Below are positions 4,583 to 64,000 of a DNA stretch of 64,000 nucleotides, piece by piece. The DNA lies in contig OZ240230.1 in NCBI GenBank assembly GCA_965197855.1, forward strand, positions 960,153-1,024,152, read 5' to 3'. The notes beneath the pieces were generated by a model. That model made no database searches. It had not been told where the DNA came from and saw only the letters and a program-made list of their open reading frames with translations. Made by a program: the position numbers and the translations under genes. Every line of letters starts with the position of its first letter. The stretch's first letter is position 1. This DNA is from Bdellovibrionales bacterium (lineage in GTDB: Bacteria; Bdellovibrionota; Bdellovibrionia; Bdellovibrionales; UBA1609).

Positions 4583-5092
4583 ATGAACTTTTTTGATATA
4601 TCAAATAAGTTGTTTGAGCATATTGGAACAGCTGGTATATCTTTACTCTTTTTATTAAGTCTTTATATTCTTTATAGAGCCTATAGAATGGAGCTTCCTT
4701 CACTTGATATTCATTTATCTGTTATAAATAAGGATTTCTATATAAGTATTCTCAAGCAATCATTTGATGAAGTTAATCAAACATTGGATCATGATTTGTA
4801 CCTTAAGGTTCACATAGTTAATTCAGGGAAAAGAATCATGTGTCCTACCCAGATTTGTGATGATAAAGGCAAGCAAATTGTTGAGATTATAAAAGAGACA
4901 GGTTTTGAATATATTCTAAAAGAAGATGAGAAGTATTCTGATTTTCATCCTTTAGGTGAGGATACAATAAAAATGATAAAGGAATCAAAACGTATTTATG
5001 TAAAGGATTTTGCTGACAGGCAGTTTCCTATTCCAAAAGAACAGTTAAAGAAAATATTATTAGCAATAAACAGCAGTAATAATAAAAAATAA
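4583..5092 (+). CDS. hypothetical membrane-anchored protein
   Basis: 169-aa ORF with one N-terminal hydrophobic helix; no recognisable domain. Confidence 0.45.
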   Translation: MNFFDISNKLFEHIGTAGISLLFLLSLYILYRAYRMELPSLDIHLSVINKDFYISILKQSFDEVNQTLDHDLYLKVHIVNSGKRIMCPTQICDDKGKQIVEIIKETGFEYILKEDEKYSDFHPLGEDTIKMIKESKRIYVKDFADRQFPIPKEQLKKILLAINSSNNKK

Positions 5093-22525: not shown

Positions 22526-22869
22526 GGGGGCGTTAGGCTTCGACGCAAATAATAAGCATTAGGGAGCATGCAGAGGTGCATGGGGACCTCTTTAAAAACG
22601 TGCATAAAACTAATTGGCAACTTTGCCACTTTAGCTGCTTAATTTTAAAGTAGCCGTGGAACCAACTTAGACGGCGAAGTTGGGGAAGCGTCGATTCAGT
22701 CGTCTCGGTTGACTGTTTTTCTCAGGCAGTGGGCTTAAATCAATGAGAAAAAACTTGAGGAAATTTTGCCTTTGGAAGTTCCTTTAAGTTTTTAAAACAG
22801 AGGCTGAGCATGGAGCACCCAAATGTAGAAGCTTTGCGGACACGAGTTCAATTCTCGTCGCCTCCACCA
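22526..22869 (+). ncRNA. ssrA: tmRNA (transfer-messenger RNA)
   Basis: 5' GGGGGCG pairs with 3' CGCCTCC-ACCA including a G3-U pair; GGCTTCGACG; T-arm ACGAGTTCAATTCTCGT; tag frame ends GGC AAC TTT GCC ACT TTA GCT GCT TAA (..GNFATLAA stop). Confidence 0.93.
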
Positions 22870-22873
22870 ATAA

Positions 22874-22907
22874 AATAGAAAAGGGGTTGTACAACCCCTT
22901 TTCTATT
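22874..22907 (+). terminator. 34-bp perfect palindrome / terminator after ssrA
   Basis: AATAGAAAAGGGGTTGT | ACAACCCCTTTTCTATT, T-rich 3' arm. Confidence 0.7.
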
Positions 22908-23050
22908 TTGTCGGGGCGAGAATTGAAGTGAGCGAGCGCTTTGTGTTGAGTGTGAAAACACTCAATACAAAGCAGAAAATCTGGAGATTTTCTGAGCGAG
23001 TGAAGGGAGCCTACGCAAAGAAAGAACGGGATGTGAGTGACTGTAGTAGG

Positions 23051-23071
23051 CAATTCTCGTCGCCTCCACCA
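23051..23071 (+). repeat. duplicate of the last 21 nt of ssrA
   Basis: CAATTCTCGTCGCCTCCACCA identical to 22849-22869. Confidence 0.95.
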
Positions 23072-23130
23072 TTTCTTCTTTTAGGAAAAGAAGGAAAAAT
23101 TTTAGCTTCTCTTCGTATATAGATGACAAT

Positions 23131-23229
23131 CTGTATTTTGAGATAGGTCATTCATGTAAACTATTCTTGCAAGATGGGAAACACATAACATTTATCGACC
23201 GTTTCAAAATGTCCTATCTCAAAATACAG
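23131..23229. repeat. 99-bp unit with 17-bp perfect terminal inverted repeats (MITE-like or long hairpin)
   Basis: CTGTATTTTGAGATAGG (23131-23147) and CCTATCTCAAAATACAG (23213-23229). Confidence 0.8.
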
Positions 23230-23374
23230 TGATGTACACTCTACAGGCTTTCATCAAACTAAAGTGAAGAGGAGGGAACTGCAGACACACAACTCGTTTA
23301 AGCCACTTATACAAAGTATTTCAACTCGACTTTACAATTTATAAGAATACTTTTAAAATACATTTCAAAACTCT

Positions 23375-62381: not shown

Positions 62382-63065
62382 ATGAAAGAAGGTTTTTTGA
62401 AAAAGAAAAGAGATGATATCTTTTTACTTATTTTAATCCTCTTTACTTTTTCTGTATCTTGCACGCAAAAAAGTTTTGTGTGCTGGAATGAAGAAAAAAC
62501 AGAAGCCATAGCTTTTTCCTTTGATGATATTTTAAATATTGTTACAGTTCGGGATATTCATAGTTATTCTACTTTAAATGCAAAAAAAGAACCTTTAGAT
62601 TCTGATATGCCTGGGGGAACTCATGTTCTTCAGATGGATGAGGATTTTATTACTTTGGAGGTGATACAAGATACGGTTTTGGTTAAAACTCGCTTGCCAT
62701 CAGGAGAGTTTATAAAAAATCCTGCGGATATTGATAATGAATATGATTATTTAAATCAAAGACGTTATCATGCTGTTTATCCTGTGGTGCATAAGTATGT
62801 CTTTGATAAAGGGTTGTCGAAACTTTCTCTCTTTTATTCGGCTCTCCCCAAACCACGTTCAGCCATAGAGCAGGAATTTATTTCTGATAAAACAAGAGGG
62901 GATCTTTATCCAAGAAAAGTAAAGGATCTGACAGCTGAGGAATTTTCTTCTATTTTTCCACCTCATGAAAAATCCAGTACTTTTCTTTATCCTAAGTGTA
63001 GAGAAGAGACTTATTCGCTGAAAAGAATTTTACGCACTATTATCAGACATCTCACTTTTGCGTAG
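62382..63065 (+). CDS. hypothetical lipoprotein
   Basis: 227 aa; lipobox FSVSC; last codons overlap a fragment of the tRNA-linked module core. Confidence 0.5.
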   Translation: MKEGFLKKKRDDIFLLILILFTFSVSCTQKSFVCWNEEKTEAIAFSFDDILNIVTVRDIHSYSTLNAKKEPLDSDMPGGTHVLQMDEDFITLEVIQDTVLVKTRLPSGEFIKNPADIDNEYDYLNQRRYHAVYPVVHKYVFDKGLSKLSLFYSALPKPRSAIEQEFISDKTRGDLYPRKVKDLTAEEFSSIFPPHEKSSTFLYPKCREETYSLKRILRTIIRHLTFA

Positions 63066-63147
63066 GCTCCCTTTCCTTGTTCTCTATGTAGAGCATTTCA
63101 TCATACTAAGATATTTATTTTGCTTCTTTTTTAAAAGAAGAGAAAAG

Positions 63148-63165
63148 TGACCACGAGTGGACTCG
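63148..63165 (-). repeat. duplicate of the last 18 nt of tRNA-Arg
   Basis: TGACCACGAGTGGACTCG identical to 63345-63362. Confidence 0.95.
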
Positions 63166-63311
63166 CCTACTACAGTCATTCGCATCCAGCTCACTCCTTG
63201 CGTAGGCTCTCTTCAGACACTCAGAAAATCGTCAAGATTTTCTGCCTTGTATTGAATACTTTCATATTTAACACAAGTCGTGTCTTCACTTCGAGTCCAC
63301 TGATGATAAAA

Positions 63312-63338
63312 AAGAAGAGGACTTACAGCCCCCTTCTT
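63312..63338 (-). terminator. rho-independent terminator after tRNA-Arg
   Basis: In tRNA sense AAGAAGGGG-GCTGTAAGT-CCTCTTCTT followed by TTTTTAT; one mismatch in a 9-bp stem. Confidence 0.6.
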
Positions 63339-63344
63339 TTTTAT

Positions 63345-63418
63345 TGACCACGAGTGGACTCGAACCACTGACCTGCAGTTTAGGAAACTGTTGCTCTATC
63401 CAGCTGAGCTACGTGGCC
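63345..63418 (-). tRNA. tRNA-Arg(CCT), CCA not encoded
   Basis: Reverse complement GGCCACGTAGCTCAGCTGGATAGAGCAACAGTTTCCTAAACTGCAGGTCAGTGGTTCGAGTCCACTCGTGGTCA folds as a cloverleaf with anticodon loop TTCCTAA. Confidence 0.92.
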
Positions 63419-64000
63419 GGCCTTTTTAATTGCAATTGAATTTTTTGTGCCAGCTCTGCAAAGCATTTTCCCTCTTCCAAATCCTGTTCCATCAAAGGAA
63501 TCCCAGATTCTGCAAAAAGACCGATATCCGGATGAAAAGGAACCTGAACTAACTTTTCTATTTCATGCTCCTTCAAATAAGAATCCAATTGTCCCTTTGG
63601 AAAGAGCTGAATCATATCATTTGCCTGTTTCAAATAAGCCATATTTTCCACAACACCCAAAAGTGGAATTTGTATTTCCTTAAACATAGCTACAGCTCTA
63701 ATGGCATCGGCCAAAGCCAGATTTTGAGGTGTACAAACTACAATGCCACCGGAGACAGGAGTTTTTTGAGCCAATGTCAGAGCTATATCTCCCGTGCCAG
63801 GTGGAAGATCCACTAACAAATAATCCAAATCTCCCCAATCCACTTCATTTAAAAACTGTTCAATGGCTTTAAACAACATAGGGCCTCTCCAAATGACGGC
63901 CGCATGTTCGTCTACTAAATAACCAATAGAAGTTAGTTTCAATCCGTGTTTCATAATGGGTACTAAACGTTCTTGATGAACTCTCATCTTTTCTTTCTTT
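63409..64000 (-). CDS. apbC: Mrp/ApbC-family Fe-S cluster carrier ATPase, C-terminal part (5' end outside window)
   Basis: AVIWRGPML, DYLLVDLPPGTGD and VENM motifs; frame stays open to the window edge; stop lies 10 nt inside tRNA-Arg. Confidence 0.85.
   Translation of the reverse strand, partial: KKEKMRVHQERLVPIMKHGLKLTSIGYLVDEHAAVIWRGPMLFKAIEQFLNEVDWGDLDYLLVDLPPGTGDIALTLAQKTPVSGGIVVCTPQNLALADAIRAVAMFKEIQIPLLGVVENMAYLKQANDMIQLFPKGQLDSYLKEHEIEKLVQVPFHPDIGLFAESGIPLMEQDLEEGKCFAELAQKIQLQLKRPAT

Follow-up and report, generated by a model that had tools for sequence, protein, structure and literature searches.

The two loci described here raise a simple question: what kind of feature is the short, structured segment that follows both the tmRNA gene and a tRNA-Arg gene of the window (the whole stretch of 64,000 nt that was analysed), each time ending in a copy of the 3' end of its own host gene? 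The preliminary description left the choice between a small non-autonomous element that retargets among tRNA-like genes and an RNA gene with a tRNA-like 3' end. The host genes, the two full copies and their parts are as follows.

22526-22869, plus strand: tmRNA gene ssrA, host of copy 1 (Rfam RF00023, 142.6 bits; ARAGORN makes no call here).
22872-22909, plus strand: spacer ('cargo') of copy 1, a perfect A-tract/GC-stem/T-tract hairpin directly 3' of ssrA (dG -23.2 kcal/mol).
22915-22927, plus strand: arm b of copy 1 (5' strand of helix P1), antisense to the tmRNA T-loop and 3' T-stem.
22928-23050, plus strand: core of copy 1, with the 3' end GTAGTAGG (covariance model, 147 bits); its parts are J1 and a weak P2, P3 (22938-22973), P4 (22973-22994), J2 and P5 (23009-23051).
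23051-23071, plus strand: arm d of copy 1 (3' strand of P1), a 21-nt exact copy of the tmRNA 3' end, from the T-loop C to CCA.
23075-23093, plus strand: small AT-rich hairpin CTTCTTTT/AAAAGAAG of copy 1, 3' of d.
63345-63418, minus strand: tRNA-Arg(cct), host of copy 2, CCA not encoded (ARAGORN-type tRNA call and Rfam).
63308-63342, minus strand: spacer of copy 2, a terminator-type hairpin (dG -21 kcal/mol).
63290-63301, minus strand: arm b of copy 2, antisense of TTCGAGTCCACT and exact reverse complement of the local T-loop/T-stem.
63166-63289, minus strand: core of copy 2 (covariance model, 164 bits); its parts are P2 (AGACAC/GTGTCT), P3 (63279-63244), P4 (63244-63222) and P5 (63207-63165).
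63148-63165, minus strand: arm d of copy 2, an 18-nt exact copy of the tRNA-Arg 3' end, from C56 to the discriminator.
63123-63140, minus strand: hairpin CTTCTTTT/AAAAGAAG of copy 2, 3' of d.
63035-63071, minus strand: degenerate older remnant with the 3' domain only (GGGAGCCTACGCAAAAGTGAG...TAATAGTG), distal to copy 2.

Every feature of the layout proposed in the preliminary description (terminator hairpin, antisense segment b, core, copy d of the tRNA 3' end and distal hairpin) is present after both genes. The two outer hairpins, however, belong to a variable spacer and flank that are not conserved across the family: CTTCTTTT/AAAAGAAG is common to the ssrA copy, the Arg copy and loci L001 and L023 and is absent from the wider family, and the left (spacer) hairpins are not conserved between lineages. 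The cores, 123-124 nt long, are identical in 99 of 125 aligned columns, close to the ~100 of 127 reported earlier. In copy 1, positions 22917-22927 of arm b are the exact reverse complement of the local T-loop/T-stem, and in the alignment GGGG at 22913-22916 is also able to pair with CCTC of the acceptor strand. The pairing of b with d was correctly given as 11 bp at ssrA (one of them G-U) and 10 bp at tRNA-Arg, and d as a perfect copy of the local tRNA 3' end (21 and 18 nt, respectively). For the 16-bp stem the earlier count proved exact (three pairs with compensatory change, one wobble, and two changes that disrupt pairing), and the second hairpin does keep identical stems around different loops. 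This likeness is not a matter of chance, since GAGCCTACGCAA occurs three times in the window against 0.12 times expected from shuffles, and the other core motifs have an expected count of ~0. The folding z-scores of the window copies range from -5.3 to -7.3. A covariance-model search of the 64,000-nt window with filters off recovered no full copy beyond these two, and the tRNA-Leu and tRNA-Pro genes of the window are without the element.

Some other properties of the window deserve mention. Its GC content is ~35%. Of 16 sub-windows, 15 have a positive GC skew and one, at 48-52 kb, a slightly negative one; the cumulative skew rises overall, a pattern that places the stretch within one replichore. 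A mechanical ORF of 89 aa (22784-23053, minus strand) overlaps the ssrA 3' end and the whole of copy 1; it is probably spurious and is without counterpart at the Arg copy. Just 3' of the ssrA element there is a 22-nt inverted repeat (23131-23152 / 23208-23229), and the flank at 23095-23330 resembles the flank of L023 and, partly inverted, that of L001, which suggests, as far as sequence likeness goes, a second small repeat family in these genomes.

Is the segment peculiar to this window? The pattern GAGCCTACGCAA-N15-35-TGTAGTAGG was searched in one genome per species, giving 32 loci, and a metagenome scan gave 10 further; matches at L018 and L040 were rejected as chance matches inside ORFs. 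A covariance model from the window copies, with nine copies as input, found 47 + 13 matches within those loci, some of them without the exact search pattern. Once the Clostridia look-alikes and one chance match are set aside, ~55 tRNA-linked copies at ~37 loci, in genomes and metagenomes, make up the family. Nearly all of them follow, at 20-150 nt, a tRNA or tmRNA gene of the same strand, and 17 tRNA/tmRNA identities are represented over 31 loci. Arm b matches its own tRNA over a mean of 10.8 nt and other tRNAs over 5.8 nt, and the corresponding means for arm d are 17.0 and 5.8 nt. According to the record labels, which may be imperfect, the carriers are mostly metagenome-assembled genomes of Bdellovibrionota, of small size, together with Omnitrophota, Planctomycetia, WWE3 and Desulfuromonadales. 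At one site the history can be followed between relatives: the tRNA-Arg locus is orthologous in the window (63345-63987) and in L001 (6681-7727, from the related MAG RHO3_bin_17), with a Mrp/ParA-like flanking protein 86% identical and the element in both. The two copies differ by 8 compensatory and 2 wobble against 3 disruptive changes, which suggests continued selection on the fold.

The look-alikes of Clostridia are a reduced form, with the closing stem and a P5 that has the same GCA/GTA loop, and no tRNA. It stands divergently, 58 nt upstream of a gene for a Mob_Pre relaxase that has a large serine recombinase next to it, and it may be an oriT, a single-strand signal or a distant relative of the element. 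Its occurrences are these.

L013, 361-469: Clostridia look-alike.
L017, 112-208: Clostridia look-alike.
L020, 2053-2149: Clostridia look-alike.
L014, 1-46: Clostridia look-alike.

As modelled, the element has ~145 bases and forms a conserved three-way junction on the tRNA-sense strand. Arms b and d make up P1, the closing helix, on which P5 stacks directly. P1 is followed by a purine-rich junction (GAAG...) and by P2, which encloses the long variable hairpin P3 and the A-rich hairpin P4, and a second purine junction separates the P2 domain from P5. The latter consists of GCCUAC/GUAGGC, a 3x3 loop (GCA/GUA), two pairs, tandem G-A and a stem with a GGA loop; the helix is invariant, and a variant copy changes CCUAC/GUAGG to CCUGC/GCAGG. 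Over 44 distinct sequences, paired cells amount to 91.5%; shuffles reach 69.8% and slid controls 32-46% (about 40%). Both-side changes are seen in 42 of the 48 pairs. These counts lean towards the structure because the alignment was fitted to the model. The selection on a fold that had been proposed from two copies is therefore upheld by covariation over ~44 distinct sequences, and it holds as homologues are added. In some copies P3 has grown: at L032 (~4790-5000, minus strand) it is expanded by ~nine tandem copies of a 23-nt unit, GCGACTTTAGGAGCAAATCACTT, and two-copy versions of this expansion are found at L002, L015 and L031.

The same alignment places the strand. G-U and U-G pairs (87) exceed A-C and C-A pairs (22) about four to one, which identifies the tRNA-sense strand as the one that folds; tandem G-A pairs are present, and in folding energy the sense RNA has an advantage of 11 kcal/mol over the antisense. 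It is the tRNA, not replication, that the fold strand tracks, given that copies 1 and 2 lie on opposite strands and GC skew is positive throughout most of the window. A dependence on the lagging-strand template in the manner of IS200/605 was considered and is disfavoured by the position of the two window copies on opposite strands of one replichore.

The next point is what moves. In the 1.56-Mb genome OY843585.1, no fewer than seven tRNAs are followed by near-identical cores, and loci have spacer types in common. A 250-nt unit made of spacer B, b and core is 96% identical (242/251) between the tRNA-Gln locus L031 and the second unit of the tRNA-Ser locus L002. A 31-bp direct repeat particular to the site encloses each of them, with 2-3 nt of filler; it begins at C56, passes the tRNA end and takes in 10 nt of the local trailer. 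The presence of one unit at Gln and Ser sites between locus-specific repeats indicates that d is a target-site duplication and that the mobile unit consists of spacer, b and the ~125-nt core. At the Ser site arm b is still of the Gln type, which implies that b adapts later. The target-matched ends noted at the outset are a general property across the 17 identities, but d is no designed end.

The geometry of the insertion is constant on one side only. The 3' end of the element (...GTAGTAGG) always abuts the T-loop C56 of the duplicated tRNA 3' part, or T55 in one subgroup, the repeat starting at 55|56 (54|55 in that subgroup) and ending -2 to +14 nt from the tRNA end. Its length therefore varies (18-31 bp) with one end fixed, and the lower bound may be set by the fact that duplications ending inside the tRNA would destroy it. 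Arm b retains the complement of T54-T55, past the start of d, and so spans the insertion point. At L027 (6566-6590) and L028 (~205-260), which are GC-rich, the antisense arm corresponds to the whole tRNA 3' end including the complement of CCA (21-22 nt), and in L028 it is split by a 32-nt hairpin insert. An origin from mature tRNA was rejected, since genes without CCA have a d without CCA (window tRNA-Arg, L001, L009, L016); the exceptions are L012 and L019, where the tRNA copy is without the full CCA that d has. The spacer is a trailer- or terminator-type hairpin in 23 of 34 loci and only 18-22 nt without hairpin inside tRNA operons (L012, L019, L036), from which it follows that it resembles the 3' trailer of a source tRNA locus.

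Tandem arrays are common, with three identical 211-bp units at L016 and at least four units at L039, and the distal units are more decayed. Some remnants have lost the 5' part and kept the 3' domain (window 63071-63035, the distal unit of L012, L032 and L025), and others have lost the 3' domain (L004, 4634-4742; L011, 7444-7547). In the decayed copies of L004, L006, L026 and L027, b matches the adjacent tRNA better than it matches d. The genome OY843585 (L006, L002, L015, L022, L031, L032) carries, after the last d, a further repeat of ~120 nt (...CTTTTCATCGTAAGAGGGACACTCTTCAAATCTC...TAGAGAAAAACTNCNGTTTTTCGC), which has a hairpin like P4 and occurs at many tRNA loci. Taken together, the arrays, the near-identical units at different tRNAs of one genome and the locus-specific flanking repeats agree with the earlier view of a non-autonomous, mobile element.

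No protein recurs among 133 flanking ORFs or 61 window ORFs; all-against-all blastp, Pfam and PHROGs comparisons of 242 flanking ORFs found only housekeeping genes and an unrelated IS in L025. In up to ~8 kb of flank at ~40 loci there is no integrase, no recurring recombinase, reverse transcriptase or transposase, and no autonomous relative carrying the core, in keeping with what had been said of the window, and the core was never seen as the end of an integrase-bearing island. L008, with no tRNA nearby, was considered as a large autonomous element and rejected, its genes being ordinary. Phage and plasmid blastn and a scan of viral contigs gave no match, and no empty-site alleles were found by exact-protein look-up.

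The reading placed first, with somewhat less than even confidence, makes the element SINE-like and non-autonomous: it would move by way of RNA and enter its target at T-loop position 55|56 through target-primed synthesis. Target-primed copying of RNA is favoured by the junctions (precise at 3', variable and with filler at 5'), by the length and variability of the duplication, by the trailer-like spacer and by the sense fold with its G-U and G-A pairs. The more specific proposal is rather unlikely as it stands: a protein-less bacterial retroelement (or self-guiding ribozyme-like RNA) whose conserved scaffold would be completed when an internal guide of 10-12 nt pairs with the T-loop/T-stem, whichever the tRNA gene, and which would be copied in at 55|56 by an unlinked or host enzyme. 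On the reading placed first, the moving form would be an RNA copy of the sense strand, produced as a read-through transcript of the tRNA gene, and its 5' end would be set by tRNA 3' processing, which would account for the likeness of the spacer to a tRNA trailer with its terminator. The predicted sense RNA has ~150-250 nt, from just after the tRNA to GUAGUAGG. In the free RNA, b would be partnerless and available to positions 54-65 of a tRNA gene, on its sense strand; once paired there, it would restore P1 together with the target and bring the RNA 3' end to 55|56. A putative unlinked enzyme (reverse transcriptase/nuclease) would nick the other strand there and copy the RNA, as in target-primed reverse transcription, and a second, less precise nick past the tRNA end would give the long duplication and keep the tRNA intact. 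Arm d would then match each new host at once, and b would adapt later.

Several points weigh against RNA-mediated copying. No reverse transcriptase or nuclease partner was found in the flanks examined, and in bacteria target-primed retrotransposition is, to our knowledge, not an established process outside group II introns. A strong terminator stands between tRNA and b in ~2/3 of the loci and no promoter is detectable (a scan of both strands gave none that was convincing), so that the RNA could arise only by read-through. A cut of the RNA 3' end exactly after GTAGTAGG is left unexplained. There are remnants missing the 3' domain instead of the 5' part (L004, L011), and the arms antisense to a whole tRNA 3' end (L027, L028) are unpredicted. 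Furthermore, the equal 31-bp repeats of the two same-spacer units also fit a measured staggered cut in DNA, and G-T and tandem G-A pairs are tolerated in folded single-stranded DNA too.

Another way of looking at these facts is to suppose that only DNA is involved, a reading that we regard as unlikely. The sense strand would fold while single-stranded, b:d or b:target would provide a duplex copy of the T-loop/T-stem site, and an unlinked or host enzyme would insert it; this could be an HUH enzyme, an integrase with a long staggered cut, or a tyrosine recombinase that works as it does on integron attC or CTX-phi attP. What is conserved is the helix itself and no free guide, the strong terminator upstream speaks against sense transcription, both same-lineage insertions have repeats of exactly 31 bp, and the use of a host enzyme would account for the missing protein gene. 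The Clostridia look-alike also lies on the strand inferred as transferred, just 5' of the relaxase gene, that is, in a single-stranded-DNA context. However, conservative recombinases give no target duplication and transposases give short, fixed ones, against the 18-31 bp, variable, seen here; the fold strand tracks the tRNA and not replication; the complex purine-rich junction with non-Watson-Crick modules is more typical of RNA; and no recombinase was found in the flanks scanned. Where the preliminary description had allowed a fold of RNA or of single-stranded DNA, the strand is now placed (tRNA-sense), with RNA the better rated of the two.

By textbook account, integrase sites in tRNA genes are recognised from a direct repeat that begins in the T-loop and extends to the tRNA 3' end. 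Such a repeat is present here. On a classical reading an integrase inserts into the T-loop and the element supplies a new 3' end to the tRNA; d would then be the native end that was displaced (attR), the core would correspond to the P arm of attP, and the copies would be miniature cis-mobilizable elements or deletion remnants of islands. Tandem accretion with decaying distal copies would fit, as would the b arms of L004, L006, L026 and L027, closer to the adjacent tRNA than to d, and the tRNA copies of L012 and L019 without the full CCA of d. Nevertheless, this explanation is very unlikely: neither an integrase nor an autonomous relative of the core accompanies the ~40 loci, the phage, plasmid and viral collections are without match, double-stranded att arms leave the covariation in five helices unexplained, the repeats of the 250-nt unit include 10 nt of each local trailer and would require its pre-capture, and a single core family has 17 different targets. 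Equally improbable is a host-beneficial small RNA gene tied to its tRNA (in tRNA processing or as a 3'-end mimic, for example) and spread by duplication, not transposition. The orthologous Arg locus with its 86% identical neighbour, the mostly fold-preserving changes there and the necessary co-transcription of copies inside tRNA operons speak for it. Against it, a mobile element is what one recognises in the three identical units of L016, in the decay of distal units and in the recurrence of nearly the same unit at unrelated tRNAs of one genome; the distribution is also patchy (the window's tRNA-Leu and tRNA-Pro being without it), and a terminator precedes most copies.

If the RNA-mediated model were true, this would be a new kind of mobile element, one short fold that colonises at least 17 tRNA/tmRNA genes and leaves its hosts undestroyed. 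Its specificity would reside in a short complementary arm and not in a protein, and it would represent a new class of nucleic-acid-guided insertion into tRNA genes, present in several phyla. It would also point to an enzyme like a reverse transcriptase or a recombinase that acts on tRNA genes in Bdellovibrionota and other little-studied phyla, and a small insertion module that can be retargeted could be derived from it. Even the most modest reading leaves a widespread non-coding family, structured and missing from Rfam. The element confounds annotation through extra tRNA 3' ends and false att sites, and it is a sign that tRNA loci are dynamic in the small genomes of predators or symbionts.

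How does the element compare with known systems? It is a real feature and a new family that fits no known kind, and it lacks the defining properties of each family that can be tested. With Rfam 15 at the gathering threshold the window gave tmRNA and tRNA matches only, and three divergent copies gave nothing relevant at E-values up to 5-10, so the absence of a known family reported earlier stands. A weak match to the Rfam 'permuted tmRNA' was rejected, as it consists of the true tmRNA 3' end plus arm b. The literature searched contained no description of the element.

MITEs, too, are small and non-coding, occur in many copies, and have inverted segments at their ends and a direct repeat around them. 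They have the terminal inverted repeats of a parent transposon and a short fixed duplication, whereas the inverted arms here come from the host tRNA and copy the target, site and orientation are strict, and the duplication is long and variable (18-31 bp). The guide RNAs of mobile elements (IS110 bridge RNA, PMC11208160; IS200/605 omega RNA; dual-strand tigRNA, PMC12045711) share with it a scaffold of ~150 nt and short, copy-specific, target-matching segments of both polarities. The element differs in having no adjacent recombinase, TnpB or Tas gene and no box C/D-type motifs, and its two matched segments pair together and do not lie in open loops. With regard to the IS110 bridge RNA or seekRNA (IS110/IS1111 end, recombinase, two guide loops), there is no adjacent ORF and the helix is closed. 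For the IS200/605 omega RNA or PATE (tnpB/tnpA, end hairpins), there are no such ORFs, the hairpins are unconserved and Rfam gives no match. A retron ncRNA would have an adjacent reverse transcriptase and a1/a2 repeats; a closing helix is present, with no reverse transcriptase gene nearby.

Integron attC and CTX-phi attP(+) sites resemble the element in the strand-specific intrastrand pairing that yields a duplex site and in their covarying stems, and CTX-phi attP(+) also in that no element-encoded recombinase is needed (PMC4792948, PMC3442271). The element has no R/L-box or dif-like consensus, no cassettes and no intI, and it differs further in its large conserved three-way junction and in making a target duplication. 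In place of the RYYYAAC/GTTRRRY core sites of attC, the junction reads GTAGTAGG|CGAAT and the T-loop GTTCRAA, with C at position 4, and the neighbours are housekeeping genes instead of cassettes or intI. In place of the paired dif-like sites of the CTX-phi Xer system, the target is a tRNA T-loop, with no dif-like arm by reading of the sequences.

CIMEs, the integrase-less derivatives of tRNA islands (PMC5704250, PMC6323972), likewise occupy tRNA/tmRNA 3' ends, show a direct repeat of the tRNA 3' part and undergo tandem accretion. The repeat of the tRNA 3' segment around the insert is indeed found here (18-31 nt, from the T-loop), but the element measures 170-300 bp in total, its core is structured and covarying, and it has the antisense arm b. 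No integrase or related integrase-bearing element was found at ~40 loci (up to ~8 kb of flank) or in the phage, plasmid and viral collections, and the repeat is not confined to an attP/attB identity block, since it includes 10 nt of local trailer at both tRNAs.

There remain the SINE/LINE elements, including the eukaryotic ones that target tRNA genes, and the group II introns. The element differs from both in its bacterial host and in having no poly-A, no reverse transcriptase gene seen, no intron domains and no Rfam intron match; moreover, it inserts behind the gene, not into it, with a duplication anchored in the T-loop. With group II intron retrohoming it shares an internal segment that would pair with the target, comparable to EBS/IBS. 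With SINE/LINE target-primed retrotransposition it shares a non-coding nature and the need for a factor in trans, a precise 3' junction and a variable 5' junction with filler, long variable target duplications and some 5'-less remnants. The signs of a target-primed retroelement in the family are indirect: the duplication varies in length but is fixed at one end, the 5' end varies, and the fold has RNA-like features.
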